Below are positions 9,362-35,489 of a stretch of DNA of 44,731 bases, one piece after another. The notes beneath the pieces were generated by a model, which was not told where the DNA came from, searched no databases, and saw only the letters and a program-made list of their open reading frames with translations. Both the position numbers and the translations under genes were made by a program. Numbering within the stretch: position 1 is the first letter of the stretch; each line of letters begins with the position of its first letter. The DNA is from a virus, in the IMG/VR virus record IMGVR_UViG_3300035698_016751. The stretch is one strand, 5' to 3'.

Positions 9362-9997
9362 ATGCCATTATATAAATCGACGGCTTTAGTTCAATGGGAA
9401 TTCCAATTTGAAGGTTCTCAGGAAAAAGCATTAAAATCAGCGTTAGCACATTTAGAAGGAGTCCTTCCTGAAGATGTGTCTTTTCGTATCAAAATCAAAG
9501 AATCTAAATCAAAGAGGCGAACCGTTTTAGGTGAATTCGCACCAGAAGATATCTTTCCATATATCTCTTCGGATAAAATTGTACGTGAATATGAAATAGA
9601 TAATAAAACATATAAGGTGAGAATGAATTCGCAAAGATATTGCGTATTTCAAAAAGAACCATCTTGTGTTGCTTGTGGTATTGAAGGAAAGAAATTCTTG
9701 TTGGAACAATACAACAGTGACCGAAATCCTCATTTCAATTTTTATGCCGAAGAAAATGGCAAGAATATTTTGATGACGAAAGACCACATTTTAGCTAAAT
9801 CAAATGGTGGTTCTAATAAATTAGAAAATTATCAAACGATGTGTTCTGTTTGTAATAATCTAAAGGGAAATCTCCCGCTTTCTATAGAAGATGTAAGCGT
9901 ATTGAAGAAGTTGTTTGATGAAAATAAACGAATTCTTAGTCGTAAAGAATTAAACATTCTCTTGGACGAAACAAGAGAAAAACTTCTTGATAAGTAG
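9362..9997 (+). CDS. HNH endonuclease
   Basis: C-terminal KDHILAKSNGGSNKLENYQTMCSVCNNLKGN is a canonical HNH motif (H..N..N..C..CN). Confidence 0.7.
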   Translation: MPLYKSTALVQWEFQFEGSQEKALKSALAHLEGVLPEDVSFRIKIKESKSKRRTVLGEFAPEDIFPYISSDKIVREYEIDNKTYKVRMNSQRYCVFQKEPSCVACGIEGKKFLLEQYNSDRNPHFNFYAEENGKNILMTKDHILAKSNGGSNKLENYQTMCSVCNNLKGNLPLSIEDVSVLKKLFDENKRILSRKELNILLDETREKLLDK

Positions 9998-10075
9998 TTT
10001 ACAAATCTTTCTATTTGTTCTATCATGTATGAATGGAAATAATAGTAAAAATTATAGGGGTAATTCTGTATTTTT

Positions 10076-10525
10076 GTGTTGTGGGATACATGGCGTATCA
10101 ACTTTTTATCAAAGATAGCAATAGGTTTGATGATGTTTAAATCAACAGGGACATTACGTTATACCCATCAACGCTATAATTTGGTCCTTGATTGTGACCA
10201 TGAATTAGGTAGGTATTATCGTTCTTTAATAGCAAAAAAATGGTTGCTCAGAAGACCATCATGGAAAGAACATATCACTCTCATAAGAGGTCCGGTTGAG
10301 TTTGCTAGTCCTCCTGATAAAGAACTATGGGGTAAGTATCACGACCATGTTATCACGTTTGAGTATGAACCATTTATAAATACAAGAGAGCCAGAAGAAG
10401 GATATCTGAGATACTTCTGGTTGAATGTTTTATGCCCTCAGTTATTGGACATAAGAGAAGAGCTTGGATTGCCTCGACCACCATTATTCCCATTACATTT
10501 AACCATAGGTAATTTGTGGAAATAG
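10076..10525 (+). CDS. 2H phosphoesterase superfamily protein (LigT / cyclic phosphodiesterase-like). Probable start at ATG 10130
   Basis: Two H-x-T-x motifs with flanking hydrophobics (HITLIRG and HLTIGN) about 75 aa apart. Both the spacing and the context are typical of the 2H fold. Confidence 0.55.
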   Translation: MLWDTWRINFLSKIAIGLMMFKSTGTLRYTHQRYNLVLDCDHELGRYYRSLIAKKWLLRRPSWKEHITLIRGPVEFASPPDKELWGKYHDHVITFEYEPFINTREPEEGYLRYFWLNVLCPQLLDIREELGLPRPPLFPLHLTIGNLWK

Positions 10526-10535
10526 GTTTTTTAGG

Positions 10536-10563
10536 TTTACAACCATGAAGATTAGTCTATAAT
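10536..10563 (+). promoter_or_regulatory. sigma70-like promoter GGTTTACAA-N-GTCTATAAT
   Basis: -35 TTTACA at 10536-10541 and -10 TATAAT at 10558-10563 with a 16-nt spacer. Almost identical in extended sequence to the promoter at 25924-25951. Confidence 0.45.
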
Positions 10564-10614
10564 TCTAACTGACCGTATACTATATCCGACTAACGCAAAA
10601 CAAGGAGACCAACA

Positions 10615-12444
10615 ATGCGTATGTTTAAGATGTTTACAATGATGTTTGTGCTGGCTGCTGTGGCTGTTCCGATGATGGGACAGGCGAAACCCGCTTCGAT
10701 GTTCGCCGAGTTGGATAAAGTCCAAGTCCAGCCCGTAAAAGATACGGCTCAGAAGAGATTCGGTTGTATTACGTGGGGTGCTGATGCTGCTACGTTTCTG
10801 GCCAACGGCGGCTTGGAAACAACTAAGGATTCAGTCTATGGGAAGATGGGTCTGAATATTAAGCTCGTTAAGAGTGATGACCCTGTGGCTCAGGTTCGTA
10901 GTTATTTGGAAGGCGATACTCCGGTACTTCGTATGACTTCGAGAATGCTTGGGATGGCTAGTGAAAAGATTGGTCGTGACCCACGCACGAAGCCACATGT
11001 ATTCCTTCACCTTTCTTTTTCTCTTGGCGACCATATCGTTTCACGGGCCAACTTTAAGACCTTGAATGATATGAAGAAAAATGGTAATAAAAAATTCAGG
11101 ATTGCATGTCAGCAGGGTGGACCCCACGTTGGACTTATTTATGATGCACTGTCTGCTGCTGGAATCCCCAAAGACGATGTTGAAATTGTTTGGGTAAAAG
11201 ATTTGACTGGCCCCAATGGTCCTGCCGAGGCATTTAGGAAAGATGAAACAATTGATGCGTGTTGCGTCATTACTCCTGATATGCTTGGGTTGGTTGGTGA
11301 CGGCATCGGTTCAGGCAAAGAAGGAACAATTAAAGGCGCACATGTCCTTGTTTCGACAGCACAGATGTCTCGTTCGATAGCAGACGTATATGTGGTACGG
11401 GATGATTGGTATCAGAAGAATCGTGCTGTTATTGAGAAGTTCGTAGCTGGTTATCTGAAAAGTTGTGTCGATGTAGTAAAAATGAGAAATGATTTCGAAA
11501 AGACGGGTAAGCTTACGCCGCAGTATAAAAAATTGCTTACTACATGTCAGACAGTATTTGGAAAAGAAGTTATTCCTACGCTAGAAGTTGATGGTCATGG
11601 ATTGCTTCTTGATTGTGCCTTCGTTGGATTGCCGGGACAGATTGCGTTCTTCGAGGACGCTGGTAATCTGAATGGATTCGAAAAGAAAATGGCTTCGGCA
11701 TTGGACTTGGCAACGACTTGGGGTTACGCCTCTAAACGTTATGGTTTCAATCCATCTGGGTTGGAGTATAAAGCTATTGCAACACTTGCTGGAATTAAAT
11801 ACGAAACACCGAAGCGTACCAATCGTATTAAGGCTGAGTCCATCGACGTATTCCCCGGCAGTGAAATGGATGAGATTGTTTCTTTCACTATTCAATTCCA
11901 ACCGAATCAGGATAAGTTTTCAGTTGACCAGTATGGTGATGAATTCCGCCGTGCAATGAAGTTCGCAAGTACGTTTGGTAATGCGGCTGTAGTAGTGGAA
12001 GGCCATTCAGACCCGACAAAGACACTTGTGACTTTGCTGAAATCTGGAATTAAGAAGGGACTGATTAAAAGAACGGGTACGAAAGCAAAGGGATATAGTT
12101 ACTTCCTTTCTGGAAAGCCTCTTGATTTGAAGCAAACAGGTAATATTGTCGAAATGATTAAGAGTGGAGCTTTCGGCGAGGATGCTGGTAACACGATGCA
12201 AGCTGCATTGAACCTGTCGGCTGTTCGTGCAAGTACAGTTAAGGCTTCCATTGTGAAAATGGCTGCTGCTGAAAAGATTACGTTTGATGCAAGTCAAATT
12301 AAGCATGTGGGTGCTGGCATCATGAAGCCTGTCGTATCTAAGCCAAGAAATATTGCAGAAGCAAAGCAAAATATGCGAGTCGAAATTCGAGTGATTAAAA
12401 TCCCCGCCGAAGCAATCAACAGCAGTGAAGATTTTGATTATTAA
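10615..12444 (+). CDS. secreted NMT1/SsuA-like substrate-binding-domain protein fused to a C-terminal OmpA-like peptidoglycan-binding domain (609 aa)
   Basis: Sec signal peptide MRMFKMFTMMFVLAAVAVPMMGQA. The central region has SBP-like periodicity of the NitT/TauT family type. The C-terminal VVVEGHSDPT...LSAVRASTVK...RVEIRVIK fits an OmpA_C-like domain. Strong AAGGAG SD. Confidence 0.55.
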   Translation: MRMFKMFTMMFVLAAVAVPMMGQAKPASMFAELDKVQVQPVKDTAQKRFGCITWGADAATFLANGGLETTKDSVYGKMGLNIKLVKSDDPVAQVRSYLEGDTPVLRMTSRMLGMASEKIGRDPRTKPHVFLHLSFSLGDHIVSRANFKTLNDMKKNGNKKFRIACQQGGPHVGLIYDALSAAGIPKDDVEIVWVKDLTGPNGPAEAFRKDETIDACCVITPDMLGLVGDGIGSGKEGTIKGAHVLVSTAQMSRSIADVYVVRDDWYQKNRAVIEKFVAGYLKSCVDVVKMRNDFEKTGKLTPQYKKLLTTCQTVFGKEVIPTLEVDGHGLLLDCAFVGLPGQIAFFEDAGNLNGFEKKMASALDLATTWGYASKRYGFNPSGLEYKAIATLAGIKYETPKRTNRIKAESIDVFPGSEMDEIVSFTIQFQPNQDKFSVDQYGDEFRRAMKFASTFGNAAVVVEGHSDPTKTLVTLLKSGIKKGLIKRTGTKAKGYSYFLSGKPLDLKQTGNIVEMIKSGAFGEDAGNTMQAALNLSAVRASTVKASIVKMAAAEKITFDASQIKHVGAGIMKPVVSKPRNIAEAKQNMRVEIRVIKIPAEAINSSEDFDY

Positions 12445-12493
12445 ACAACGACGATAACTGGTCACAATAAAACCTCGATGGAGATTTGAAATC

Positions 12494-13372
12494 ATGAAAA
12501 TGAAAAGTATTTTAGCTACGGCTCTTGTGTTTATCTTGAGTACGGTAGTAATGGCAGAACAAAACGTAGTAATAGTGTTGGATGATTCTGGGTCGATGAA
12601 TGACCCGATGCGAAAGAATGGCAAGGTTCTAAGAATCAATGCGGCGAAGACGGCACTCCATACAGTAGTCAACCAGATTTCCCCTGACACAAAAGTTGGC
12701 ATTGTTCTTTTGAACAAAGGTTGGATTGTTCCTCTTTCTAAAATTAACAAAGTAGACTTGAACAATAAAATCGACTCTATTGTTCCGGCTGGTGGAACTG
12801 AGCTTGGAAAAAGTATGAAAATCGGAGCGGATGCTCTTCTGACTGTAAGAGCGAAAGAAGGGGTCGGTGTTTATAAGCTCTTGATTGTAACAGATGGAGA
12901 AGAAAGTGATACGGCATTAGTAAACAAGTATCTGCCCGATATGATACGGAAACGAATAACCGTGGATGTGATTGGCGTAGATATGAAGGGCAATCATAGT
13001 TTGGCTACCAAAGTCAATCAGGGCCGATACAAAAGTGCTGATGATGTTAAGGCAATCACCGCTGCAATTTCAAATGTGTTTGCTGAAAGCACAGGCGGCG
13101 CAGATGATATCGGAGATTATGAAGTAATTGCAGCAATCCCAGATGAAATTGCTAAGTCCGCTATTATGGCATTGACACATACTGACAATACCCTTATCGG
13201 TGAAAAACCCAAAACTGCCAGTGCTAAAGCTAGAGCCAGAGCATCTGTTGTAACGGGTCAGGAAACGATTGAGGGAATGGGTGTTGGTTGGTGGGTTATT
13301 ATCATAATGGGTTCAATAATAGGCATGATTGCTATCGTTCTAATCGGCAAAGAAATTGGGCTAATATCATAA
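12494..13372 (+). CDS. von Willebrand factor A (vWA) domain membrane protein
   Basis: Signal/TM segment at the N-terminus. The vWA MIDAS motif is VVIVLDDSGSM, with later TDGEE. C-terminal TM anchor WWVIIIMGSIIGMIAIVLI. Confidence 0.65.
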   Translation: MKMKSILATALVFILSTVVMAEQNVVIVLDDSGSMNDPMRKNGKVLRINAAKTALHTVVNQISPDTKVGIVLLNKGWIVPLSKINKVDLNNKIDSIVPAGGTELGKSMKIGADALLTVRAKEGVGVYKLLIVTDGEESDTALVNKYLPDMIRKRITVDVIGVDMKGNHSLATKVNQGRYKSADDVKAITAAISNVFAESTGGADDIGDYEVIAAIPDEIAKSAIMALTHTDNTLIGEKPKTASAKARARASVVTGQETIEGMGVGWWVIIIMGSIIGMIAIVLIGKEIGLIS

Positions 13373-13383
13373 GGGGCTTAAAA

Positions 13384-14913
13384 ATGGCAAGAGGTAAATT
13401 TGTAGCAGCAGTAATTGTTTTTATGGTCTTCGTTGGTATCGCTTCAGGCGTGTATAAGTTGTGGCTTGTCCCTACTAAGGAACGAGCGGATGAAAAGATA
13501 CAGGCAAAGAAAGACGAAACCGAAGCCAAAGAAAAACAGGAACTTATGAACCTAACTAGTTCTGATTCTCGATACGATTACAACATTAACTTTGCTATTG
13601 ATTCATTCAGTGGTTATGCGGTGTGTCGTTCTGAAACATTCAAAAAGGAACTGACCAATCGAAGAATCAAATTGAATCTTGTCGATGATGGTGCAGATTA
13701 TGCGTCACGGCTACAGAAGTTAAAATCGGGCGATATTCAAATGGGCGTTTTCACTATTGATGCCCTTATTAAAGCCTGTGCTGATGATAAGTCTGTTCCA
13801 GCTAGTATCGTGTATATTGTTGATGAAACAAGAGGCGCAGATGCTATGGTGGCTTACAAAGATGCGTTCCCGAATTTGGATGCATTGAATGACCCAGATG
13901 TAAAATTTATTCTTCCAAAAGGCTCTCCTGCTGAAACACTTGCTAGGGTTGTAATGTCGAATTTCAATCTTAGGAATTTGAAAAACAATCCTTTTATCTT
14001 CGTAAAGGATGCCAAAGCTGTTTATGAGGCGTATAGAAAAGCGAAGCCCGGAGATAAGAATATCTTTGTTCTTTGGGAACCGTATGTGACAAAACTTCTT
14101 GAAAATCCGAATACGCATGTTCTTGTGGATAGCGGTAGATTTCGGGGTTACATTGTTGATGTAATTGTGGCCAATAGAGATTTCCTTGCAAAGAACAAGG
14201 AAGTAGTTCAGACATTTGTTGAGTCGTATTGTCGCTCATACTATAAGAAGAGCGGAATGATGCTGCCAGTTGTTATTGAAGATGCTAAAAAATCAGGACA
14301 ACCTCTTAGTCCAAAAGCGGGTAAACGTCTTGTAGATGGTGTTTGGTGGAAGACTACACCAGAAAATAATATTCACATGGGTCTTGTAGAAGGTGAACTT
14401 CAACATATAGAAGATATAATTTTGAATATTACCAAGGTGCTGAAAACAACAGGTGCCATTGACACAGACCCAACAGACGGAAATCCTAATATTCTTTATT
14501 TTAAAGGTATTCAGGAACAGATGATAAAAAATAATTTCCGTCCCGGCATGGCTGATGAATCAGTGCGAGAAGATAAAATTATTCTTTCTGCACTATCAGA
14601 TAAACAATGGGAAGACTTGATTCCTATTGGTCAGTTGGATGTTCAACCTGTAGTGTTTGGTCGTGGTACAAGTCGAATTTCCTCTATGGGAAAAAATGTA
14701 TTAAAAAATCTTATGGAAACACTAAAAACGTGTCCTAAGTTTTACGTTCTAATTCGTGGTAACGGCGGTGATGCTGAATTGGCAAACAGTCGTGCAACGG
14801 CAGTAAAAGAATTCCTGATTTCGAATGGGGTAGGCAAGAACAGGGTTCGTGCAATAGCTGGAAAACCGTCTAACTCTACTTCTGTGGACTTTGTATTAGG
14901 GCAACAGTTCTAA
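13384..14913 (+). CDS. membrane-anchored NMT1/SsuA-like substrate-binding-domain protein with a C-terminal OmpA-like domain (509 aa)
   Basis: Start reassigned to ATG 13384 (AAGGGG SD), because the track start at 13288 overlaps the vWA gene. N-terminal TM FVAAVIVFMVFVGIASG. SBP-like core. C-terminal YVLIRGNGGDAELANSRATAVKEFLISNGVGKNRVRAIAGKP is OmpA-like. Confidence 0.5.
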   Translation: MARGKFVAAVIVFMVFVGIASGVYKLWLVPTKERADEKIQAKKDETEAKEKQELMNLTSSDSRYDYNINFAIDSFSGYAVCRSETFKKELTNRRIKLNLVDDGADYASRLQKLKSGDIQMGVFTIDALIKACADDKSVPASIVYIVDETRGADAMVAYKDAFPNLDALNDPDVKFILPKGSPAETLARVVMSNFNLRNLKNNPFIFVKDAKAVYEAYRKAKPGDKNIFVLWEPYVTKLLENPNTHVLVDSGRFRGYIVDVIVANRDFLAKNKEVVQTFVESYCRSYYKKSGMMLPVVIEDAKKSGQPLSPKAGKRLVDGVWWKTTPENNIHMGLVEGELQHIEDIILNITKVLKTTGAIDTDPTDGNPNILYFKGIQEQMIKNNFRPGMADESVREDKIILSALSDKQWEDLIPIGQLDVQPVVFGRGTSRISSMGKNVLKNLMETLKTCPKFYVLIRGNGGDAELANSRATAVKEFLISNGVGKNRVRAIAGKPSNSTSVDFVLGQQF

Positions 14914-15656
14914 TGGATGATGTAAAGAAAAAAGTATTATTGGATTTGACTTCTTCTCCGGTATCCCTTGGACCTTTGACGATAGGTATATGCCTATTGA
15001 TGGGTGCGTGGGCATTGAGTAGTTCATTTATTGGGTTTCTTGGTGTTTGTGGGATTCTAGCTGGTGCAGCTATGTTCATTATTCGATTAATTTTTCAAAT
15101 GGACAAGTTGACAGCACAGGCCCAGAAGTGGCGGTTAAGTAGCGACTCAAAGAAAAGAGAAATAAAGCTTGACGAACTTGATAATAAACTTTGTAATGAT
15201 TTAGACCCTCGAACAGAAACAGCATTGAGAGACCTGCGTGAGTTACATGCTGATTTCAAAAAACACATTCGTAATGGCACAATAAAAGGACAAATTGGTT
15301 CAATAATTGGCGATAGCGTAGATACTTTGTTCCATGGTTGTGTAGCTCAATTAAGTCAGTCTTTTGAAATGTTCAAAGCGGCAAGAACGATGCATGGGAA
15401 ACAAAGAACCGAAATTAGTAAACAAAGAAAAGCAATTGTTGATGATGTAGTAAAAAGCATTGAAGAACTAGGAATGACAATTTCTAAGTGTTTCAAACTG
15501 GCGACTCATAAAATTTCTGACATGGCACAGGCACGAAAAGAATTACAACTGACCATGGAATCGGTAGCAAGAGCAGAACAACAAACAGAAGATATCATAA
15601 ACGGTAATCCCGATTATGATGAGGATGAATTCCTACAAGAAGTACCAGAAGAATAA
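14913..15656 (+). CDS. membrane protein with a cytoplasmic coiled coil (247 aa)
   Basis: Two TM helices near the N-terminus, then a coiled-coil region. ATG overlaps the upstream stop (TAATGG). Confidence 0.4.
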   Translation: MDDVKKKVLLDLTSSPVSLGPLTIGICLLMGAWALSSSFIGFLGVCGILAGAAMFIIRLIFQMDKLTAQAQKWRLSSDSKKREIKLDELDNKLCNDLDPRTETALRDLRELHADFKKHIRNGTIKGQIGSIIGDSVDTLFHGCVAQLSQSFEMFKAARTMHGKQRTEISKQRKAIVDDVVKSIEELGMTISKCFKLATHKISDMAQARKELQLTMESVARAEQQTEDIINGNPDYDEDEFLQEVPEE

Positions 15657-15659
15657 AAC

Positions 15660-16157
15660 ATGAACGAATCAATTGCACAATTTTTGGTCCAAAATGATGA
15701 AGATGACAACGATGTGTTAAATCGTCCGTTATTTGATGTCAACATGCGGCTTTATAAAAACAATGTACATTATCGTACTGTAATTAATGATGCAATACGA
15801 TATATGGTATTTGTCCTGAAACAAAAATTTAATGATTATGGTAAGTTAAAAGGTATTTCTGGGGCTAACTTAGGCATTCCTTGGAACATTATCGCTTATT
15901 ATAATAATTCAGTGATGGTAATGATTAATCCTAAAATCACTGAAGCATGGTCCCCCGTTAAAGTGCTGAGCAATTGTGGTTCTTTGCGGCTTCCAGAAAG
16001 CATTAAGGTAGAACGACATGCCTTTATCATTTGTGAATGGTATGATACCAGTGGACAGTTACATAAAAAGGAATATGATAGAGACCAAGGTAGTCTGACA
16101 ATACAACATGAAGTTGAACACAACCAAGGCGTTTTAATAACACAAAAAGGACTATAA
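15660..16157 (+). CDS. def: peptide deformylase
   Basis: All three PDF motifs are present: GISGANLGIPW (G.G.AA.Q), SNCGSLRLP (EGCLS with the Cys ligand) and QHEVEHNQG (QHE.DHL.G, the HExxH metal site). Confidence 0.7.
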   Translation: MNESIAQFLVQNDEDDNDVLNRPLFDVNMRLYKNNVHYRTVINDAIRYMVFVLKQKFNDYGKLKGISGANLGIPWNIIAYYNNSVMVMINPKITEAWSPVKVLSNCGSLRLPESIKVERHAFIICEWYDTSGQLHKKEYDRDQGSLTIQHEVEHNQGVLITQKGL

Positions 16158-16303
16158 ATGTTTCAAAGATGGGTTAAGAATCTTTTCGTTAGAAATAAGG
16201 CTTATAAGGCTGATAAGGCAAGAACTGTGTTCTTTCAAAAAGCTAGTAAAAGAATAGCACAAGAAGTAGAAATGCGGCAGGCAAAATTTTTATTAGATTA
16301 TCG

Positions 16304-16331
16304 TTTACAGGAATAAAAAAAGTCCTACAAT
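16304..16331 (+). promoter_or_regulatory. sigma70-like promoter TTTACA-N16-TACAAT
   Basis: -35 at 16304-16309 and -10 at 16326-16331, about 50 bp upstream of ATG 16381. Confidence 0.4.
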
Positions 16332-16380
16332 ATAAACAACCAAGACGTATCGTGTAACTTAAAAAGGAAAAGGAATCACA

Positions 16381-17193
16381 ATGTTTAAAGCACTTTTTAG
16401 ATGGATTAAGGGAATCAAGTATCTATGGACTGGCAAGATTGATAAGGCCCGTGAAGAACTTGATATGAACCCGCATGTCATGAATGCCACGTATGATGAA
16501 ATTCTTGAACAGAAAAAGAATAGAATTCATCATTACAAAGACGCCATTTCTGCGATGGTTCACAGCAACGAGAAAAAGAAACAAATTCTCACAAATCTGA
16601 CGGAAGATGTCCAAAGACTTGAGAAACTGAAAAAGGGCGCAGCCGCAAAAGCCAAGAAAGTTGCCGCTACTCATAATGGTGTAAAAGCCGCATGTATGGC
16701 TGACCCTGAGTACGTAAGATGCTCTTCAGCGTACACCGACTTCTCTTCTACGCTAGAAGAAAAGCTAAACAGAATCACTGAACTCGAAGCCGATATTGAA
16801 GAGAAACTCCAAAATATCGACGGACATAAAATTCAAATCAAGAATCTCATCCGTGACCGTAAAAAGATTCAGGAAGAGAAGCACGAAGCTGTTGCAGATG
16901 TCCAAGGCGCACAGCACGAAAAAGAAATTGCGGATATGCTTACGGGCATCGCCAACGATACAACTTCCGCAGACCTTCAGCGTATGCGTGATATGCGTGG
17001 GAAAGCAAAGGCTAATGCTAAAGTCAGCAGCGAACTCGCAGGTCTGGATACTGATAGAGAAGAGTCTGACTTCCTTGAAGAAATTGCTGCTTCCGAATCT
17101 AATAGCGAATTCGAAAGCCTGATGGATTTCCAAGAAGACGAAGCGGAAGAAGGGATTGCGGCTCCGATAGAAGAAACTCAAATACCTGAATAA
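16381..17193 (+). CDS. PspA/IM30 (Vipp1/ESCRT-III-like) family coiled-coil protein
   Basis: The N-terminal amphipathic MFKALFRWIKGIKYLW and the 250-aa heptad coiled coil with an acidic tail resemble PspA ([25 protein letters not shown]...). Confidence 0.4.
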   Translation: MFKALFRWIKGIKYLWTGKIDKAREELDMNPHVMNATYDEILEQKKNRIHHYKDAISAMVHSNEKKKQILTNLTEDVQRLEKLKKGAAAKAKKVAATHNGVKAACMADPEYVRCSSAYTDFSSTLEEKLNRITELEADIEEKLQNIDGHKIQIKNLIRDRKKIQEEKHEAVADVQGAQHEKEIADMLTGIANDTTSADLQRMRDMRGKAKANAKVSSELAGLDTDREESDFLEEIAASESNSEFESLMDFQEDEAEEGIAAPIEETQIPE

Positions 17194-17333
17194 TAAGGAA
17201 TAATAAAAATGGGTAAAGGAAGAGATACAAGACCGAAGAAGAGTAAGAAGAAAAAAGAGAAGAAAATAAAGCCGAAAAAGTAATCGTGCCAAATTAATTG
17301 GCTTCCAAAATGTTCTATTGAAAGGGACTAGTA

Positions 17334-18398
17334 ATGAAGAATGCAAAGATGATGATTATGGCGTTGATGGTGTCGGTCATGGCGGTCGTAGGTTGTGGTG
17401 CAAAGAAATCAGAAAATATTACGAAGGCACCGGAAGGCATGAAGGTCGTAAAGCTGGCATGGAGCGAATATCCTTCGTGGTCCGTTTTCGGCGTTGCTGA
17501 TTTGCGTGAAATCGTGGATGGCCGAGAAGGTTGGGTTAGTCCTCTTGAGAGGAAGTACGGGCGTGACATTGTACTGGTTCAGGCAGATTATGACACCTGT
17601 ATAACGCTGTACGGTAGCAATATGGTGGATGCTGTTTGTATCACGAATATGGACACGCTTGCCCCGGCATTGAGTCGTGATTCCGTTGCAATTCTTCCGA
17701 CTTCAACGAGTGATGGGGCAGATGCTTGTATCGTTACTAATATAAGTAATTTGGATGATTTGGAAGGCAGAAAAACGTATGGGCTTGAAAAGTCAGTAAG
17801 CCAGTATGCACACGAACGGAATATCGAAATCGCAGGTAGGTCTGTTGCTGACTTCCCGTTTGCTCAGATGGACCCTTCTGCTGCTGCACAGGCAATGCAA
17901 ACAAATCAGAAGGGCATTGATGCCATTATGGTTTGGAATCCTTTTGTGTTGCAGACACTTCGCACTCGTGATGGAGCCACTGTCTTGTTCGATTCAACAA
18001 CTATCAAAGAAGAAATCATTGATATGGTTGTTATGGGCAAAGATGCAGTAGACGAGAAATCTGCCTGTCTTATTATTGAAGCGTTTTACGAAGTTCAGAA
18101 ACTTCTGGCCGACCCGAAGGAAACCGATGCAACGCATGTAGCTTTGGGTGCCAAGTTCTCAAATCTTGGGCTGGCCGATATGAAGATTGTTTTGAAACAG
18201 ACGAAGTGCTATAAGACTCCCGCCGAAGCACTTGCCCTGTTTAACTCGCCGAAATTCCAGAATGAAATTATGCCTAGGGTTGTCAAATTCTGCTCTGAGC
18301 ATGGTATGCTGGACAAGAAGGTGACTGTTGGGTTTAATGACATGGACGCACAGGTAAACTTCTCATCTGATTATATTAACAAAGTCAAGAATCAGTAA
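17334..18398 (+). CDS. ABC transporter substrate-binding lipoprotein, NitT/TauT (SsuA/TauA/NMT1-like) family
   Basis: Lipoprotein signal with lipobox MAVVGCGAKK. SBP fold features. Immediately upstream of a permease and an ATPase of the same family. Confidence 0.6.
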   Translation: MKNAKMMIMALMVSVMAVVGCGAKKSENITKAPEGMKVVKLAWSEYPSWSVFGVADLREIVDGREGWVSPLERKYGRDIVLVQADYDTCITLYGSNMVDAVCITNMDTLAPALSRDSVAILPTSTSDGADACIVTNISNLDDLEGRKTYGLEKSVSQYAHERNIEIAGRSVADFPFAQMDPSAAAQAMQTNQKGIDAIMVWNPFVLQTLRTRDGATVLFDSTTIKEEIIDMVVMGKDAVDEKSACLIIEAFYEVQKLLADPKETDATHVALGAKFSNLGLADMKIVLKQTKCYKTPAEALALFNSPKFQNEIMPRVVKFCSEHGMLDKKVTVGFNDMDAQVNFSSDYINKVKNQ

Positions 18399-18420
18399 AC
18401 GAGTTTCCCAGACACACAGA

Positions 18421-18457
18421 GGCGGCTCTTCGGAAACGGAGAGCCGCCTTATTTTTT
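18421..18457 (+). terminator. rho-independent terminator
   Basis: Stem GGCGGCTCT / AGAGCCGCC around TCGGAAACGG, followed by TTATTTTTT. Confidence 0.75.
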
Positions 18458-18459
18458 GG

Positions 18460-18488
18460 TTTACAAGTGACTGTAAACTCCCTACAAT
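18460..18488 (+). promoter_or_regulatory. sigma70-like promoter GGTTTACAA-N-CTACAAT
   Basis: -35 at 18460-18465 and -10 TACAAT at 18483-18488, directly after the terminator and ahead of the permease gene. Confidence 0.4.
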
Positions 18489-18510
18489 GACCCTAGAAAG
18501 AAGGTGACAA

Positions 18511-19308
18511 ATGGTTGGCGATGCCATATCAAAAAAGAAACGTATCACTATTGGAATTTTGTCTTGTGTGATTTGTTTAAGTGGATATTTGTGGATGTCA
18601 CACAAACAGCATCAAATTAACAAGAAAGATACTACCCTCCCTACTTTATCTCAGTTCGGTGAAGGGATAGAAAAAATAACGACAAGAGATGCTGCCGGGG
18701 ATGTGTGGGTCATTGATGACTCAATAGCAACGGGTGGACGACTCATTTATGGATTTGCTGTTGGAGTTATTATATTTGCTACTCTAGGTGTGCTGATGGG
18801 GTGTTATCAACCCATGTCCGCATTCTTTTTGCCGCCGATTAATTTTCTTTCTAAAATACCACCTACAGCTATGCTTGCTGTGTATTTTGTTTTGTTTGGA
18901 ATTGAAACACAATTGTTTGTAGCAATGATTGCCTTGGGTATTGGACCGACATTAGCAATGTCTATCTACGATTCAGTAAACAAAGATGTAAAAGACCATG
19001 CTCTTTACAAAGCCTATACGTTGGGTGCTTCTCATATGGAAGTTGTGTACGAAGTAGTATTCAAACAGATTCTTCCTAGAATCATTCAAAATATCCAATT
19101 GCAAATTGGGCCAGCTATGGTGTTTCTTATTGCGGCTGAATGGATGATAGCAGATATGGGATTCGGATATAGATTGCGAATACAATCTCGATTGCTTAAT
19201 ATGAACGTGGTATATTTGTATCTGTGTTTACTTGGTCTTGCGGGATTTGGCTTTACTTGGGCATGTACTTTTTCTCGTAGAAAACTGTGTGGATGGTTTG
19301 GAGAATAA
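18511..19308 (+). CDS. ABC transporter permease (SsuC/TauC-type, binding-protein-dependent inner-membrane component)
   Basis: Six predicted TM helices. Gene order SBP-permease-ATPase. Confidence 0.65.
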   Translation: MVGDAISKKKRITIGILSCVICLSGYLWMSHKQHQINKKDTTLPTLSQFGEGIEKITTRDAAGDVWVIDDSIATGGRLIYGFAVGVIIFATLGVLMGCYQPMSAFFLPPINFLSKIPPTAMLAVYFVLFGIETQLFVAMIALGIGPTLAMSIYDSVNKDVKDHALYKAYTLGASHMEVVYEVVFKQILPRIIQNIQLQIGPAMVFLIAAEWMIADMGFGYRLRIQSRLLNMNVVYLYLCLLGLAGFGFTWACTFSRRKLCGWFGE

Positions 19309-19310
19309 AA

Positions 19311-20216
19311 ATGACAGATACAAATAATGTATTGGAAATAACTGGTGTGACGCACGGCTTTGGTCCCAAAAGAGTTCTGAATAATATTAATTTTGGAATT
19401 AAAGCAGGTCAAATTACTGCTATTGTGGGACCAAGTGGTTGCGGCAAATCCACATTGTTTAGAGCCATTCTCGGAACACATCCCCCTCAAGAGGGAACAA
19501 TATGTGTAGACGGTAAAGAAATGAATGGTCCGTCCGAAAAAATAGGAATTGTGTATCAGCATTATTCACTATATGATTTCCTTACTATTGGGGAGAATGT
19601 GATGTTTGGTCTTAAACTAGACCAGACATCTATCCCAGATAGAATCTTTAAGTATTTCTCATGGAGAAAATTGAGAAATAAACATAGAGCTAAAGCGGCT
19701 GAAATGTTGGAAGTAGTTGGGCTTCCTAATACTATGAGTTCATATCCAAGTGAACTTAGTGGTGGTATGAGACAAAGAGTAGCAATCGCACAAGCTCTAG
19801 TTATGAGGCCAAGTATTCTTCTTCTTGATGAGCCATTTGGTGCTTTGGATGCAGTGACGAGAATGAGTTTGCAAAGATTGTTGCTTCGTTTTTATCAAGA
19901 AAACTTGGAAGCTAAAAAAAGAGGCGAACGTCCCCCTCATACCGTCATTATTGTTACTCACGAATTGGACGAAGCTATTTATGTGAGTGATAGAATACTT
20001 GGTCTATCACAATATTATGAGGGTGCTGATGGGTCAAAGATTGTGTATGACAAACCTTCTCCTGTGTTTAGACCGGATGAGCCAGCAGATACAGATTCCT
20101 TTATGGAACAAAAGACGGAAATTACACATACAGTTATGGATGCTGATTACTGTCAATCGTATCAAGAATGTTTGACAGATTGGAGTAAACGAGCCTCCGA
20201 AGAAGGCCGAATATAA
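19311..20216 (+). CDS. ABC transporter ATP-binding protein (SsuB/TauB/NrtD-type)
   Basis: Walker A GPSGCGKST, ABC signature LSGGMRQRV, Walker B ILLLDEPF, H-loop VTHE. Start reassigned to ATG 19311 (GGAGAATAAAA SD). Confidence 0.8.
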   Translation: MTDTNNVLEITGVTHGFGPKRVLNNINFGIKAGQITAIVGPSGCGKSTLFRAILGTHPPQEGTICVDGKEMNGPSEKIGIVYQHYSLYDFLTIGENVMFGLKLDQTSIPDRIFKYFSWRKLRNKHRAKAAEMLEVVGLPNTMSSYPSELSGGMRQRVAIAQALVMRPSILLLDEPFGALDAVTRMSLQRLLLRFYQENLEAKKRGERPPHTVIIVTHELDEAIYVSDRILGLSQYYEGADGSKIVYDKPSPVFRPDEPADTDSFMEQKTEITHTVMDADYCQSYQECLTDWSKRASEEGRI

Positions 20217-20217
20217 C

Positions 20218-20412
20218 ATGAAAGATATTCTAACAAATATTCTAATTTATTTCGACTTGATAGTTACTATCGGTTTTGTCATCGCTAAGTTAAATGGCGG
20301 CATTACATGGAATTGGTGGTGGATTTATGTTGGGTTGTGGGGACCAGCTATACTGACAATCATAGCCGCCATGATAGCCAATGTTATAGACGAAGTGAGA
20401 TATTGTGCGTAA
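20218..20412 (+). CDS. small membrane protein (64 aa, 2 TM)
   Basis: Hydrophobic Trp-rich ORF, translationally coupled to the ATPase gene. Confidence 0.35.
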   Translation: MKDILTNILIYFDLIVTIGFVIAKLNGGITWNWWWIYVGLWGPAILTIIAAMIANVIDEVRYCA

Positions 20413-20601
20413 ACAAGAATTTATCGACAATTACGTGGCTACTTTCCTTGCAACATTTTCGGCTATACATTATGATGATTACTGTAGCAGAGGATTACAT
20501 GAAGAATTCCACAATCAACCAGTTGAAGATGCTGAGCATCTGGCTGAGTTGGCGTGGAAAAGTTTAGAAGAACACAAGGCTTGAATCTGGAGAAAATAAA
20601 A

Positions 20602-21546
20602 ATGTCAAAAGTAGTAATGATATTGGGCTACCCTGCTTCATCGAAGGGGACACATGCCGAAGCATACATCGCTGATGGATATGTCCATCTGAATAGAGAT
20701 AAAGAGGGTGGTAAGGTTGTCTCATTATTGCCTAAGATGGAAGAAGCAATCAATGCCGGGAAAGATGTTGTTTTAGATAACCTGTTTCCTAATATTGAAT
20801 CGAGAAAACCATTTGTTGAATTGGCACATGCAATGGGTGTTGAGATTAGTTGTGATTGGATGTCAACTAGTCTGGAAGATTCACAAATAAATGCTCTTCA
20901 CAGAATGTGGAAAAGGTATGGTCAACTTTTCCTTGACCCAGCTTCTTTGAAAGCTGCGTCCGCTGATGTGAAAAAAGACTCTAATATGTTTCCGATTGTT
21001 GTTTTGTTTAAGTATAGAAAAGAGTTTGAAAAACCCACTACAGCCGAAGGGTTTTCTGTAGTAAACAAAATTCCGTTTAATCGTAACTACGATGAAAACT
21101 ATACGAATAAGGCTATCTTTTTTGATTATGATAACACACTAAGAACCAATACTGGAAATGGTAAATATCCAGTTCATCCAGATGAAGTTGTTTTGATGCC
21201 GGGAAGAAAAGAGAAAATAAAACAACTGCTGGATGAAGGGTGGTTACTTCTAGGTGTGTCGAATCAAGCTCCTATTGCAAGGAAACAATTGACAGAGGAA
21301 AATGCGATAGCTTGTTTTGATAGAACTAACGAATTGCTTGAGGCTGATATCGAAGTTGTGTATTGTCCTCATAGTGTTCCCCCATCATGTTATTGTCGCA
21401 AGCCACAAAGCGCACTTGGTGTATATTTTATCGAAAAACATAAACTGGACCCAAGAGAATGTATATTCGTGGGTGATATGACAACTGACCGCACATTCGC
21501 CTCAAGACTAAATATACCTTTTGAATATGCGAAAGATTTTTTTTAA
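20602..21546 (+). CDS. polynucleotide 5'-kinase/3'-phosphatase (T4 Pnk-like)
   Basis: N-terminal P-loop kinase MILGYPASSKGT. C-terminal HAD phosphatase motif I FFDYDNTLR, later LLGVSNQ and VGDMTTD. Start at ATG 20602 with a GGAGAAAATAAAA SD. Confidence 0.7.
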   Translation: MSKVVMILGYPASSKGTHAEAYIADGYVHLNRDKEGGKVVSLLPKMEEAINAGKDVVLDNLFPNIESRKPFVELAHAMGVEISCDWMSTSLEDSQINALHRMWKRYGQLFLDPASLKAASADVKKDSNMFPIVVLFKYRKEFEKPTTAEGFSVVNKIPFNRNYDENYTNKAIFFDYDNTLRTNTGNGKYPVHPDEVVLMPGRKEKIKQLLDEGWLLLGVSNQAPIARKQLTEENAIACFDRTNELLEADIEVVYCPHSVPPSCYCRKPQSALGVYFIEKHKLDPRECIFVGDMTTDRTFASRLNIPFEYAKDFF

Positions 21547-21617
21547 ATCATTTTCTTCTTAAATAGACATATATATGTTTGTAATACAAATATGTATTTA
21601 TCTATAAGGAGAAGGAA

Positions 21618-22409
21618 ATGCGGAAAATGAGAAATATATCCAAACAAAGATTTGGGAGACTTGTGGCAATAAAAAGAGTAGCCAACAATGATAAACATAA
21701 TAAGACTCAATGGTTGTGTAAATGCGATTGTGGAAAAGAAACAGTAGTAATTACTTCATCGTTGACAGGAGGGTTAACAAAAAGTTGTGGTTGTTTACAT
21801 AAAGAATCTATGTCCATAACAGGTAAAAAAAAAGTTAAAAAGTTGGACGGACAAAGGTTTGGAAGACTTCTTGTTTTGGAAAGAGATTATGAATATCAAA
21901 AAAAGAAAAATAGTTGTTCTGCTTATTGGAAATGTAAATGTGATTGTGGTCAAGAAAAGACTATTTGCGGTTCTAATTTAATAAGAAAAAGAGGAACCAA
22001 AAGTTGTGGTTGTTTGGCAAGAGAAATGACCACTGAACGTAACATAATACTTTTTTCTAAAAAAGATGGTGTGGCGGCTCAGAATGCCATATACTATCGT
22101 TACAAACGTGGTGCGAAGTTAAGAAATTTAAGTTTTGATTTATCTGTGGAAGAGCTTAATAGTTTTTTACAACAAAATTGTTTTTATTGTGATAGTGAAC
22201 CTAGCAATAGACATAGAAACAAACGAAAAAACTTAATACATGATTATAGCTATAATGGGATAGATAGAAAAAATAATAAAAAAGGTTATTCTTTAGATAA
22301 TTGTGTCCCCTGTTGTAGGATTTGTAATAAAGCGAAAGATGTTATGTCTTTGAAAGAATTTGCAGAATGGATACAATCTGTTCAAACGTCGTCTTGGATA
22401 ATTAATTAA
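21618..22409 (+). CDS. HNH homing-endonuclease-like protein with a duplicated N-terminal module
   Basis: Two tandem copies of QRFGRL(V/L)..(K/E)R....W(L/K)CKCDCG(K/Q)E..(V/I)....L..G.TKSCGCL. The C-terminal HNH core is CFYCD...GIDRKNNKKGYSLDNCVPCCRICNKAK. Confidence 0.7.
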   Translation: MRKMRNISKQRFGRLVAIKRVANNDKHNKTQWLCKCDCGKETVVITSSLTGGLTKSCGCLHKESMSITGKKKVKKLDGQRFGRLLVLERDYEYQKKKNSCSAYWKCKCDCGQEKTICGSNLIRKRGTKSCGCLAREMTTERNIILFSKKDGVAAQNAIYYRYKRGAKLRNLSFDLSVEELNSFLQQNCFYCDSEPSNRHRNKRKNLIHDYSYNGIDRKNNKKGYSLDNCVPCCRICNKAKDVMSLKEFAEWIQSVQTSSWIIN

Positions 22410-22420
22410 GATGTACATGG
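22403..22420 (+). promoter_or_regulatory. phage-type promoter box AATTAAGATGTACATGG
   Basis: Member of the TGTACAT family, 20 bp upstream of ATG 22440. Confidence 0.5.
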
Positions 22421-22439
22421 TGTGATAAGGACTTCTTTA

Positions 22440-24293
22440 ATGGCTAATAAGTATAAATTCTTTTCTAAATTTGGTAAGATTATAAATTCTGGGCAATCAC
22501 GTAGTATTGTTTTATATGGCAATGTGAGTGACTTGTTTTGGGATGGTGAAAAATATAGTCCAATCATTCCGTTTATGTTAAAAAAGACGGAACCAGCCAA
22601 TCGAATACAGATTGTGTATGAACTGAATGGTCCCATTAGGATTTCAGAAGAAGACAAAGCGTTACTTAAAGCTAGTTGGATTCAATGGAAAGCTGGAGTT
22701 GATATAAACGATTTGATTCTTAAGAATCTTCGTATTGATATCGCAAATATAAAAAAGGGAATTGTCAAAGATAGTCCCGATGAAAAATGGGGAAGAGAAT
22801 TTGACAATTATATGAATCGTGCGATTGGCAGTCCGGGTCAAGCATTAGAATTCATGAGGCAAATGTGTATTGCCTCCAGAACATGTCCTATCAAAATATT
22901 GGACGCAAATGGGAAAGAAGTTAGCCGAAGAAGTCTTTTGTTTTTCATTGAGGGAGCAGACATGTTGCTCCCTACCGGGAAGGGTGATATTTCTAGTCTT
23001 AAAGATGCACAATTAAGAAGAATATTTATTGTGCAGGATTGGTTTAGTGATGCCGATTTTGTGAATGGGCGTGATACGGTCTGTTTTATCGCCGAATCCC
23101 CCAGTTTAATTCATGAACGAATTTCTAAGATGCCGCAAGTTATCAGTGTCGAAGCTCCATCACCGGACACAAAGCAACGAGCGCATTACATAGAAAAATT
23201 TTGTGAATTTACTAAATGGGACAATCCGTGGAAAGATAGAGGTAGTTTGTCTGTAGCTACTGCTGGACTTTCTATTCATGCTTTGAGACAACTTCTTATT
23301 GGTGCGAAACATGAAGGAAATTCTTTAAACTATTCTGTTGTCATTGACAAAGTTGAAGAATTTATCAAATCACAACTCGGAGAAGATGTTATAGAGTTTA
23401 AGAAACCGGAGCACAAATTAAAAGATGTTGTAGGTGCTACTACGGTAAAGAACTTCATTAAAAATTATCTGATTAAGAAATTCACAACGGATGATAAAAA
23501 GAAATCTATATCTGGATGTGCGGTTGCTGGTTCTATAGGTTCAGGAAAGACCTTTATATTTGAAGCAATGGCTGCTGAGTTGGGAATGGTTGTTTTAGTG
23601 TTGAAAAACCTCCGTAGTCAATGGTTTGGGGGAACTGATGTAATTTTTGAGAGATTGAAACGTGTATTGCTGGTTCTTGAAAAAGTGTGTATCTTCGTTG
23701 ATGAAGCCGATACACAATTTGGTGGAGTAGGTGCAGGGGAACATTCTACAGAACGTAGATTGACGGGCAAAATACAAGCAATGATGAGTGATACCAAATT
23801 AAGAGGAAAAATAATTTGGTTGCTTATGACTGCTCGTATTAATTTGTTGTCGGCTGATATCCGCAGACCGGGACGTGCTGGTGATTTAATCATTCCTATA
23901 TTTGACCCTGAAGGGGATGACAGAAAAGAATTTGTTGCGTGGGCATTGAAATCTTCAGTAAAAGGAAGGCAAGAAGAGGAAAAAGCGAATATTTATGATG
24001 CAATAGATAAGATACTTCCTTCAACATATTCTGCGGCATCATTTGCTTCTTTGGTATCATACTTAGCAGATTATGAAGATGAGGAACTGACTCAGCAAAG
24101 AATTGTTGAGTTAGTGCAAGATTTAATTCCTGCTGATATTGGTGAAACAAGAGAGTATCAGAAACTACAGGCGTTGATAAATTGCACACGCAAATCTTTG
24201 TTGCCACCTGAGTATCAAGATAAAGATATAACGGAATTAAAAGACGCTTGGCGACATGAAATTCAAAAGCTTGAATCAGAAGGTATAAAATAG
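22440..24293 (+). CDS. AAA-family ATPase with a degenerate N-terminal AAA-like half
   Basis: C-terminal half has Walker A GSIGSGKT, Walker B IFVDEAD and the classic AAA second region of homology with RRPGRAGDLIIPIFDP. The N-terminal half has degenerate P-loop-like and DE-like segments (IVLYGNVSD, LFFIEGAD). Confidence 0.7.
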   Translation: MANKYKFFSKFGKIINSGQSRSIVLYGNVSDLFWDGEKYSPIIPFMLKKTEPANRIQIVYELNGPIRISEEDKALLKASWIQWKAGVDINDLILKNLRIDIANIKKGIVKDSPDEKWGREFDNYMNRAIGSPGQALEFMRQMCIASRTCPIKILDANGKEVSRRSLLFFIEGADMLLPTGKGDISSLKDAQLRRIFIVQDWFSDADFVNGRDTVCFIAESPSLIHERISKMPQVISVEAPSPDTKQRAHYIEKFCEFTKWDNPWKDRGSLSVATAGLSIHALRQLLIGAKHEGNSLNYSVVIDKVEEFIKSQLGEDVIEFKKPEHKLKDVVGATTVKNFIKNYLIKKFTTDDKKKSISGCAVAGSIGSGKTFIFEAMAAELGMVVLVLKNLRSQWFGGTDVIFERLKRVLLVLEKVCIFVDEADTQFGGVGAGEHSTERRLTGKIQAMMSDTKLRGKIIWLLMTARINLLSADIRRPGRAGDLIIPIFDPEGDDRKEFVAWALKSSVKGRQEEEKANIYDAIDKILPSTYSAASFASLVSYLADYEDEELTQQRIVELVQDLIPADIGETREYQKLQALINCTRKSLLPPEYQDKDITELKDAWRHEIQKLESEGIK

Positions 24294-24297
24294 TTTC

Positions 24298-24326
24298 TTG
24301 AAAATGCTTGTTTGCTGTCCCATAAT
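24298..24326 (+). promoter_or_regulatory. sigma70-like promoter TTGAAA-N17-CATAAT
   Basis: -35 at 24298-24303 and -10 at 24321-24326, upstream of ATG 24345. Confidence 0.3.
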
Positions 24327-24344
24327 AGATAGGAAGGAAGAAAA

Positions 24345-24602
24345 ATGTTATCCATGATAATTGCATCAAACGCACACGCACAACTAATATGGGAATTTTG
24401 TATAATATTTTTTGGTAGCTTGGCGTCAATCGGAATAATATGGTTCATATGTGCGGCCTCCGTTGAATGGTGGCAAGACCACCAAGCACAGAAAGAATAT
24501 AAACGGTATAGGGCACAACAAAAGAACAGACAAATTAAAAGGCAGAAATTGCCAAGTAATAAAAATGCACATGCCATTAATGCTTGGAGAAAAAAGACCT
24601 AA
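24345..24602 (+). CDS. small membrane protein with a basic tail (85 aa)
   Basis: Two hydrophobic helices, then a K/R/Q-rich C-terminus. Confidence 0.35.
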   Translation: MLSMIIASNAHAQLIWEFCIIFFGSLASIGIIWFICAASVEWWQDHQAQKEYKRYRAQQKNRQIKRQKLPSNKNAHAINAWRKKT

Positions 24603-26013: not shown

Positions 26014-27225
26014 ATGTTACTACTTCCAGCCCAATCTGTTCTCGATACAGATTTATACAAATTATCCCAACAGGCAGCTATACTTGCTAAATATCCTAAC
26101 GTCGATATGGAGTGGCGATGGGCCAATCGTAATGGGACACCATTTAGTAATAAGGCGGTAGACGCCATTCGTGAAAATATTGAAAGGATGGCAGAGCTTA
26201 AAGTCAATGATGAACAGATGGCAGCTTTTGCAAAAGCCTGTTCGTTCTTCAATCCTTCTTACTTTGCATATCTGAAAAATTACAGATTCAATCCTAAAGA
26301 AGTGAAAATCACTCAGGATAATGATGAAAACTTTGCAATGTCTTTTCGTGGAAAATGGCATAGCAATATTTTGTGGGAAATTCCGGGGTTGTTCATCCCC
26401 AGTGATGCATACTACAAGTTTGACGATACAGACTGGTCAGATGAAGGACAAGAAGCTTTGCTGCGTGAAAAAGGGAAATTCCTTTGGAACTGTACCTTTG
26501 CTGATTTCGGAACAAGGCGAAGAAGAAATTTTGAATCTCAAGACCGTGCTGTAAGAATTCTGAAAGATAACCCCGGCTTTGTTGGGACCAGCAATGTTCA
26601 CTTGGCTTTGAAGTATGGTGTAAAGCCAATTGGCACTTTAGCACATGAATGGATTATGGCACATCAGGTTTTGTCTGGTATTCGTCATTGTAATAGAGCA
26701 GCGATGCAGGCATGGAATGATGTTTACAAAGGCAATTTGGGTATCGCCCTTCCTGATACCATTGGTTCTGATTCATTCTTTGCTGATTTTGATGGTGTTC
26801 TTAGCAGGTTGTTTGATGGCACCAGACACGACAGTGGTTGTCCTTATGAATATGGTGAAAAGACAATTGCTCACTATGAGAGTTTGGGAATTAATCCATG
26901 TTCAAAGGTTATCATCTTTAGTGATGGATTGCGTGCCAATGCCGATGCGAGTCCTGAAAGAAATCCTGAAAAAATCAGAAAATATTTTGAAGGACGTATT
27001 AAGACATCATTTGGTATTGGAACAGATTTCACAAATGATTTCCCCGGTAGTCCTGCGTTGAATATCGTAGTCAAACCTTATACAGTCAATAATATTCATG
27101 TTGTTAAATATCCCGATAGTGCGGGAAAAGCGATGGGCGACCCTGATGCACAGAGAGTTGTACGATATATTTCCCGTGGAATCTCGCTGGATACTCCGTT
27201 GGCTTCATTAAAAAAGGGAAAATAA
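26014..27225 (+). CDS. pncB: nicotinate phosphoribosyltransferase
   Basis: Collinear with E. coli PncB. Shared motifs are LDTDLYKL (LDTDAYKL), DFGTRRR, GTSNVHLA (GTSNYDLA), TLAHEWIMAHQ (TQAHEWFQAHQ), GIALPDT, RHDSGCPYEYGEKTIAHYESLGINPCSKVIIFSDGL, SFGIGT and LNIVVK. Confidence 0.85.
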   Translation: MLLLPAQSVLDTDLYKLSQQAAILAKYPNVDMEWRWANRNGTPFSNKAVDAIRENIERMAELKVNDEQMAAFAKACSFFNPSYFAYLKNYRFNPKEVKITQDNDENFAMSFRGKWHSNILWEIPGLFIPSDAYYKFDDTDWSDEGQEALLREKGKFLWNCTFADFGTRRRRNFESQDRAVRILKDNPGFVGTSNVHLALKYGVKPIGTLAHEWIMAHQVLSGIRHCNRAAMQAWNDVYKGNLGIALPDTIGSDSFFADFDGVLSRLFDGTRHDSGCPYEYGEKTIAHYESLGINPCSKVIIFSDGLRANADASPERNPEKIRKYFEGRIKTSFGIGTDFTNDFPGSPALNIVVKPYTVNNIHVVKYPDSAGKAMGDPDAQRVVRYISRGISLDTPLASLKKGK

Positions 27226-27367
27226 TGATTGATAAAATTATCACATTAACGGAAGAAGAATCAAAAAGATTGACGGAAAGACCGTTAAAAGTTGCGGGAA
27301 AAGATTTTGAAGAATTAGAAGATTGGAGAAATCGTTCTCGCAGGTCAAATATTAGGGTAAATTAAAA

Positions 27368-35474: not shown

Positions 35475-35489
35475 GATGTACATGGAGGG
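35468..35489 (+). promoter_or_regulatory. phage-type promoter box TAGTTAAGATGTACATGGAGGG
   Basis: Identical 22-mer to the box at 33975. Overlaps the stop codon of the upstream ORF. Confidence 0.55.

Follow-up and report, generated by a model that had tools for sequence, protein, structure and literature searches.

The window analysed here is the 44,731-nt IMG/VR virus record IMGVR_UViG_3300035698_016751, and its subject is a tight, co-directional series of genes that the list of open reading frames (ORFs) places on the + strand between 10.5 and 24.3 kb. The genes labelled g1 to g9 run along this strand (Table 1). An earlier note on positions 10536-14913 had drawn attention to two proteins in which a substrate-binding protein (SBP) domain is fused to an OmpA-like domain (g1 and g3), with a von Willebrand factor A (vWA) protein between them (g2); g9 lies beyond those coordinates. 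Position 10536 is itself the first base of a promoter match, TTTACA-16-TATAAT. Promoter and terminator sites are predicted, as consensus matches, and promoters were scanned over 9900-24600. Homologues were searched for at E <= 0.001, and the membrane topology of g1-g6 was inferred from hydropathy and signal motifs. Very probably, the two fusions and the vWA protein are the periplasmic side of an envelope system that is conserved in Planctomycetota and Lentisphaerota, and that a set of very large phages has captured whole and kept.

Table 1. Features of the g1-g9 region of the window (aa, amino acids; TM, transmembrane; ABC, ATP-binding cassette; MIDAS, metal-ion-dependent adhesion site).
Feature	Coordinates	Strand	Remarks
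Sigma70-like promoter match, predicted	10536..10563	+	TTTACA-16-TATAAT, 11/12; top score in 9900-24600; upstream of g1
g1, secreted SBP-OmpA, 609 aa	10615..12444	+	TauA/SsuA-type SBP domain and OmpA-like domain; signal peptide
g2, periplasmic vWA protein, 292 aa	12494..13372	+	MIDAS intact; signal peptide; C-terminal TM anchor
g3, TM-anchored SBP-OmpA-like, 509 aa	13384..14913	+	N-terminal TM helix, TauA-type SBP domain, OmpA-like domain
g4, 247 aa	14913..15656	+	2-TM hairpin and ~180-aa helical domain; conserved operon member
Peptide deformylase, insertion	15660..16157	+	PF01327, E 1.3e-10
g5, divergent PspA/Vipp1 (ESCRT-III superfamily), 270 aa	16381..17193	+	hydrophobic/basic N-terminal segment
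g6, lipoprotein SBP, 354 aa	17334..18398	+	lipobox VVGC; NitT/TauT class; presumed cognate receptor of the importer
Terminator-like hairpin, predicted	18419..18450	+	14-bp stem with 9 GC pairs, then T-run; directly 3' of g6
g7, ABC permease (TauC/SsuC-like)	18511..19308	+	
g8, ABC ATPase	19287..20216	+	probable start ATG 19311, for a 301-aa product, the length found in bacterial orthologues
Polynucleotide kinase/phosphatase (PNK)	20554..21546	+	insertion between g8 and g9
HNH endonuclease	21618..22409	+	insertion between g8 and g9
g9, AAA+ ATPase, 623 aa	22422..24293	+	classical clade; C-terminal module active by motif (GSGKT, DEAD), PF00004

The block has a counterpart in bacteria, where the gene order is SBP-OmpA, vWA, SBP-OmpA, a helical protein with two TM segments, PspA/Vipp1, lipoprotein SBP, permease, ABC ATPase and tandem AAA+ ATPase. 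This order is shared by a 1.1-Mb contig (L001), by loci from Planctomycetaceae and Roseimaritima (L004-L007), by Blastopirellula sp. JC732 (L015) and by Lentisphaeraceae (L016), at 36-59% protein identity. These are the bacterial contexts; the large phage contigs bearing the module are likewise L-numbered (L008, L010, L011, L014, L017 and others). L001 encodes, in succession, a protein of 612 aa, a vWA protein, a 500-aa OmpA protein, a protein of 242 aa, an SBP, a permease and an ABC ATPase. In the planctomycetacean L007, a relative of g5 (276 aa, 43% identity) lies between the counterparts of g4 and g6, and the ABC ATPase is directly followed by an AAA+ protein of 600 aa to which g9 is 47% identical over its full length. 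The AAA+ gene is found either directly upstream of g1 (L004, L006, L015) or directly downstream of g8 (L007). The PspA-like gene sits between g4 and g6 in most loci, and the vWA and 2-TM proteins are invariably co-conserved. At least 1362 homologues of g1 and at least 801 of g3 were found; in each case the top 120 cover nearly the full length, at ~45-60% identity, and come mostly from bacterial contigs, which in some cases measure 0.5-12 Mb. The sources named are Blastopirellula, Bremerella, Pirellulales, Thermoguttaceae, Planctomycetaceae and Lentisphaeraceae, and at NCBI some of these homologues are entered as 'phosphate ABC transporter substrate-binding/OmpA family protein'.

Judged by gene order, the block in the window is a syntenic, gene-for-gene copy of a planctomycete operon and not a phage invention, and the system comprises 8-9 genes, running past the two fusions to g9. 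The earlier note's idea of a single envelope module is supported. Its boundaries for the module were drawn too short, since the tandem AAA+ ATPase belongs to the system as well. Nor is the fusion of an SBP to a wall-binding domain the unusual architecture it was taken for, given the number of homologues and a published precedent that is discussed below.

Carriage by phages extends beyond the window. The module was found on 8 IMG/VR contigs of 65-488 kb, and g1-g8 are contiguous and free of insertions in LR756511.1, an unannotated GenBank record of 595,163 bp described as 'uncultured phage' (locus L023, 300947-330395, with the module at 11225-19784). The T4-like contig L017 has many small ORFs between the module genes, and g1-g8 are all kept within the locus; its ABC ATPase orthologue (18284-20200) is 638 aa long and contains an intein (Hom_end_hint, LAGLIDADG). 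The flanks of L008 and L012 contain phage-family matches, and L008 also shares with the window an upstream 2H-phosphoesterase gene and an HNH gene. In the window the 2H-phosphoesterase-like gene, at 10076-10525 (+), immediately precedes the module (PF22547, E 3e-4), and it occupies the same position in L008 and L019. In L008, a viral contig of 436 kb, a second ATPase (19665-21206; phrog_10440, E 1e-130) follows the module AAA+, which is apparently shortened or frameshifted. The window itself is phage-like: it encodes several HNH endonucleases and a clamp loader, its UvrD-type helicase is split by inserted ORFs, and there are phage-family matches to NAD synthetase and ArdC. Its GC content is 0.41 in the module and 0.38 elsewhere, compared with 0.52-0.64 in the planctomycete loci. 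In neighbour-joining trees of seven module proteins the viral and bacterial sequences interleave, forming at least 3 viral groups, although such trees are too crude to count acquisitions. A megablast search of 10000-20300 against the INPHARED phages returned no match.

The insertions differ in their distribution. The PNK insertion is common to the window and four of the 8 IMG/VR contigs, L008, L010, L011 and L014. The deformylase gene, between g4 and g5, was found in the window and the identical contig L002; it has no counterpart in the other loci, and at its site the relatives L018 and L019, which are 76-83% identical, have only an ORF of 49-66 aa. The deformylase is therefore a lineage-specific insertion outside the system, and its candidacy as a module member, which the earlier note had put forward, was rejected.

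The two fusions are as the earlier note described them: the ORFs, the signal peptide of g1 and the N-terminal TM helix of g3 all stand, and the homologue consensus for g3 opens at the same Met as the ATG chosen here. AlphaFold2 (AF2) models, each built on a 41-sequence alignment, are confident (predicted local distance difference test scores of 89.8 and 86.0). Both proteins show a bilobed alpha/beta fold with a hinge, like that of TauA/SsuA, and TauA is the best match for both, at ~20% identity to TauA-type proteins. The OmpA_C/Pal/MotB_C fold (beta-alpha-beta-alpha-beta-beta) is present at both C-termini. The g3 domain is above the Pfam gathering score for PF00691, and the g3 family profile matches OmpA/Pal/YiaD/YfiB/MotB chains (best E 6e-11). 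In the g3 model a TM helix and long stalk helix span residues 3-58. Many residues are invariant within the g1 family and within the g3 family.

A closer inspection of the peptidoglycan-binding motifs separates the two proteins. OmpA-like domains contact diaminopimelate through two conserved residues, the Asp of GHTD and the Arg of LSxxRA. The motifs of g1 are canonical (GHSD(466)...NLSxxR(538)A...NMRVE); across 41 sequences G463, H464, D466, R538 and N586-M587-R588 are invariant and E590 nearly so, with an insertion of ~55 aa, modelled as a beta-hairpin and helix, in the spacer between Asp and Arg. In the g3 family, R470 (the Arg of LSxxRA) is invariant, and GNAS aligns to the GHTD of 5wtp, placing Ser where the Asp would be. 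Thus the Asp/Arg pair proposed by the earlier note as a test was retained in full by the 609-aa protein and by half in the 509-aa protein. By motif, g1 is a plausible true peptidoglycan binder, and g3 has an OmpA-fold domain whose affinity for the wall is uncertain. The window g3 and its two closest relatives (P0002 and P0003) also have an 8-residue deletion in the loop with which canonical OmpA-like domains bind peptidoglycan (residues ~459-471, window ~14755-14800); this loop is full-length in bacterial g3 orthologues.

The vWA call for g2 was well founded. It matches PF00092 at E 1e-10 (42.5 bits against a gathering cutoff of 23.8), the MIDAS residues DxSxS (here DxSGS), GGT and TDGE are kept in 11/11 aligned orthologues, and the C-terminal TM segment comprises residues 267-285. 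The TM protein noted after g3, in the same orientation, is g4, the helical domain of which is probably cytoplasmic. Homology of g4 to Snf7 (ESCRT-III) is suggested by analogy with the 'SIG+TM+Snf7' protein of Ravi et al. (discussed below) and was not detected here. Single-sequence PDB searches with g4, g5 and the vWA protein gave no meaningful match.

The window g5 protein alone has no Pfam match, but the earlier suggestion that it is PspA-like was borne out through its family. A profile of 57 sequences matches the Vipp1/PspA structure 6zvr at E 1.4e-8, the alignment is colinear in two stretches (39-98 to 30-89 and 133-251 to 99-214), and PF04012 is matched by 12/57 members. We therefore regard g5 as a divergent PspA/Vipp1 protein of the ESCRT-III superfamily. 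Its N-terminus (MFKALFRWIKGIKYLW) looks amphipathic, and polymerisation on the membrane through this helix is predicted. For g9, residues ~324-528 find their best PDB matches in VCP/Cdc48, AFG2, Vps4 and katanin. The N-terminal half of g9 has no Walker A motif and aligns colinearly, if weakly, with the C-terminal half (hhalign E 0.001, 21% probability). The tails of g4 (15560-15656, DEDEFLQE) and g5 (17080-17193, EESDFLEE) share an acidic E-x-[DE]-F-L motif; 9/19 g4-family and 32/57 g5-family members have a looser form, [DE]x[DE][FY][LIMVDE], within their final 70 residues. These tails may be a shared docking motif, for instance for the AAA+ ATPase.

The third part of the system is the importer g6-g8. 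The lipoprotein SBP finds its best model in TIGR03427 (E 1.3e-41), at a score far below the equivalog cutoff. The hairpin after g6 is followed by a promoter-like site at 18460-18488, and the pair could set the ratio of receptor to transporter. Operon linkage makes delivery of ligand by g1 and g3 to the cognate permease a putative function. Since a separate cognate lipoprotein SBP is present, g1 and g3 are more likely to be sensors or tethers than delivery receptors.

The closest described system is an operon type reported by Ravi et al. (2024, mSystems, PMC11237479), consisting of PspA, PBPB+OmpA, ABC, TM-Snf7 and tandem AAA+, with OGG56892.1 from Candidatus Handelsmanbacteria as an example; these authors propose a link of membrane remodelling, peptidoglycan binding and solute transport. 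Fusions of PBPB to OmpA in PspA operons had therefore been documented already. Like that type, the present system combines in one operon a homologue of PspA, a secreted SBP+OmpA fusion bearing a signal peptide, the permease and ATPase of an ABC importer, a helical protein anchored in the membrane, and an AAA+ protein, the N-terminal module of which may likewise be inactive. It differs in having two paralogous SBP-OmpA proteins (one secreted, one TM-anchored) with a vWA/MIDAS protein between them, a separate lipoprotein SBP, another gene order and carriage by phages; Snf7 homology of the membrane protein was not confirmed. It is thus a distinct variant of a computationally described operon type. 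The variant with two SBP-OmpA proteins and a vWA protein is not mentioned in Popp et al. (2022) or in a review from 2025 on ESCRT-III systems of bacteria. No paper on its carriage by phages was found in the literature searched, and neither transporters nor OmpA nor phage shock come up in the main text of the huge-phage paper (PMC7162821). Both this Planctomycetes-Verrucomicrobia-Chlamydiae (PVC) variant and its carriage, whole, in huge phages are apparently new.

Other likenesses are more partial. MotB/PomB and TssL/TagL, with an OmpA-like peptidoglycan anchor on a stalk in the inner membrane, and YfiB, a lipoprotein that senses envelope stress, are comparable, but here a complete TauA-type SBP domain lies between the anchor and the OmpA-like domain, g3 is without the canonical Asp, and there are no stator, type VI secretion system or YfiR partners. 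The NitT/TauT receptors TauA, SsuA and NrtA have the same fold and the same operon link to a TauC-like permease and ABC ATPase; g1 and g3, in contrast, are only ~20% identical to them, are fused to wall-binding domains and coexist with a separate cognate lipoprotein SBP. As in the classical Psp and Lia systems, a PspA-family effector is accompanied by a small membrane protein, its potential recruiter, and, as in Proteobacteria, by an AAA+ partner (reviewed in PMC7619361). Unlike in those systems (PspA-PspBC-PspF; LiaH-LiaI), there are no homologues of PspB, PspC, PspF or LiaI, the AAA+ protein is of the classical Cdc48/Vps4 clade rather than a bacterial enhancer-binding protein, and a large periplasmic arm and an importer are present.

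The best overall explanation is that the phage supplies an envelope-anchored system for membrane maintenance and solute uptake, a reading to which we give a probability of about 0.5. The mechanism as a whole is tentative, and would run as follows. Wall-bound g1 and g3, held in the inner membrane by its stalk, would link membrane and wall, and a small ligand from the periplasm would bind in their TauA-like clefts; the MIDAS site of g2 would join the two proteins into one periplasmic complex. The state of this complex would be relayed across the membrane by g4 to a polymer of the PspA-like protein on the cytoplasmic face, and the polymer would coat, then stabilise or reshape, the inner membrane. 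The AAA+ protein g9 would recycle the polymer, as Vps4 does for ESCRT-III, and the g6-g8 importer would take up a related solute. The pay-off for the phage would be a host inner membrane that stays sealed, energised and supplied through a long infection.

Several observations weigh against this reading. L001 has neither g5 nor g9 within 10 kb, and no AAA+ homologue was detected in LR756511.1 at E <= 1e-10; the system is therefore modular, and its periplasmic/ABC part can exist without the PspA/AAA+ part. For g4, no likeness to Snf7 or PspA was detectable, whether with Pfam (19 members), with a family profile run on the PDB (E <= 10) or in an hhalign comparison with the g5 family (14% probability). 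The canonical Asp is missing from g3, and its binding loop is shortened in the clade of the window. Finally, the SBP domains of g1, g3 and g6 are remotely related (BLASTP aligns short stretches at 26-32% identity; hhalign gives 62% probability), so that a shared ligand is not implied.

The same modularity would suit an auxiliary module for nutrient acquisition, by which the phage boosts the uptake of a solute supplying nitrogen, sulphur or carbon (taurine, sulfonate, nitrate or urea class). The wall-tethered SBP domains of g1 and g3 would then concentrate ligand and relay it to the lipoprotein SBP and the permease, and the PspA and AAA+ genes would be separate neighbours. The complete importer and the three SBP-fold proteins fit this view, as do the versions that lack the AAA+ gene (L001 and LR756511.1) and, in L001, the PspA gene. 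The strong terminator-like hairpin after g6 is what would be expected where a receptor is made in excess. The PstS of cyanophages, a single SBP gene borne by phages, is a precedent. However, the three SBP domains are very divergent from each other, the invariably co-conserved vWA and 2-TM proteins have no role in canonical ABC import, and in most loci the PspA-like gene is inside the operon rather than beside it. Nutrient acquisition alone is an unlikely explanation, albeit one with a real chance of being right.

A bolder version of the membrane-maintenance reading is that huge phages of Planctomycetota use the PspA polymer, the Vps4-like AAA+ protein and the wall-anchored receptors to remodel the inner membrane actively during infection, for instance in building or maintaining a membrane-bound compartment for replication or assembly, or in resealing the envelope at sites of entry or exit. 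The SBP-OmpA/vWA complex would then mark the site and sense a periplasmic cue, beyond any protection or import. We consider this speculative and rather improbable.

Superinfection exclusion or receptor masking, whereby the wall-bound proteins and the vWA protein change the periplasm or cell wall so that competing phages cannot inject, is more doubtful again. Phages often encode envelope proteins for exclusion, and g1, g2 and g3 are exported and envelope-anchored. Against this, the same system is a chromosomal operon with ordinary metabolic neighbours in many free-living PVC bacteria, so that its primary function is cellular. PADLOC gave generic P-loop or coiled-coil matches on the module and no defence-system assignment, and exclusion would leave the ABC importer, PspA and AAA+ proteins unexplained. 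That the block is host DNA, from a chimeric assembly or a prophage flank, might be suspected from its 50-60% protein identity to planctomycete genes and from the lack of any virion structural gene in the window, but is extremely improbable, as the GC content of the module equals that of the window and differs from the bacterial loci by 0.1-0.2, phage-type genes (deformylase, PNK, HNH) are interleaved with module genes here and in independent viral contigs, the module recurs in the 595-kb phage record, and two other samples independently yielded an assembly of identical sequence.

Elsewhere in the window, an 874-aa protein at 1447-4071 (+) matches the major-vault-protein shoulder domain (PF11978, E 1.3e-23) and contains a Vault_3 repeat; it has no PHROG match and is unusual in a phage-like genome. 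The halves of the UvrD-type helicase (33999-35069 and 37115-38233, +) match residues 149-387 and 390-668 of phrog_1967, and the ~2 kb of ORFs between them (35082-37097) look like an interruption by a mobile element. NAD salvage genes at 26014-29134 (+) encode a nicotinate phosphoribosyltransferase (PF04095, E 1e-58) and a glutamine-dependent NAD synthetase (phrog_36784, E 3e-108).

In several lineages of very large phages the set is kept whole even though mobile genes have inserted repeatedly, and its base composition has been ameliorated. Such retention points to a strong benefit in infection, so that the module amounts to a phage-encoded 'phage shock' system. Moreover, the module points to Planctomycetota as the hosts of these phages. 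It joins three fields that are mostly treated separately, namely membrane repair by ESCRT-III proteins (PspA/Vipp1), classical AAA+ ATPases, and a wall-anchored ligand-binding complex with an ABC importer. Within it, g9 is a candidate for the remodeller of PspA polymers that has long been sought, and the module offers compact, co-evolving gene sets in which the recruitment and recycling of PspA-type polymers may be tested.

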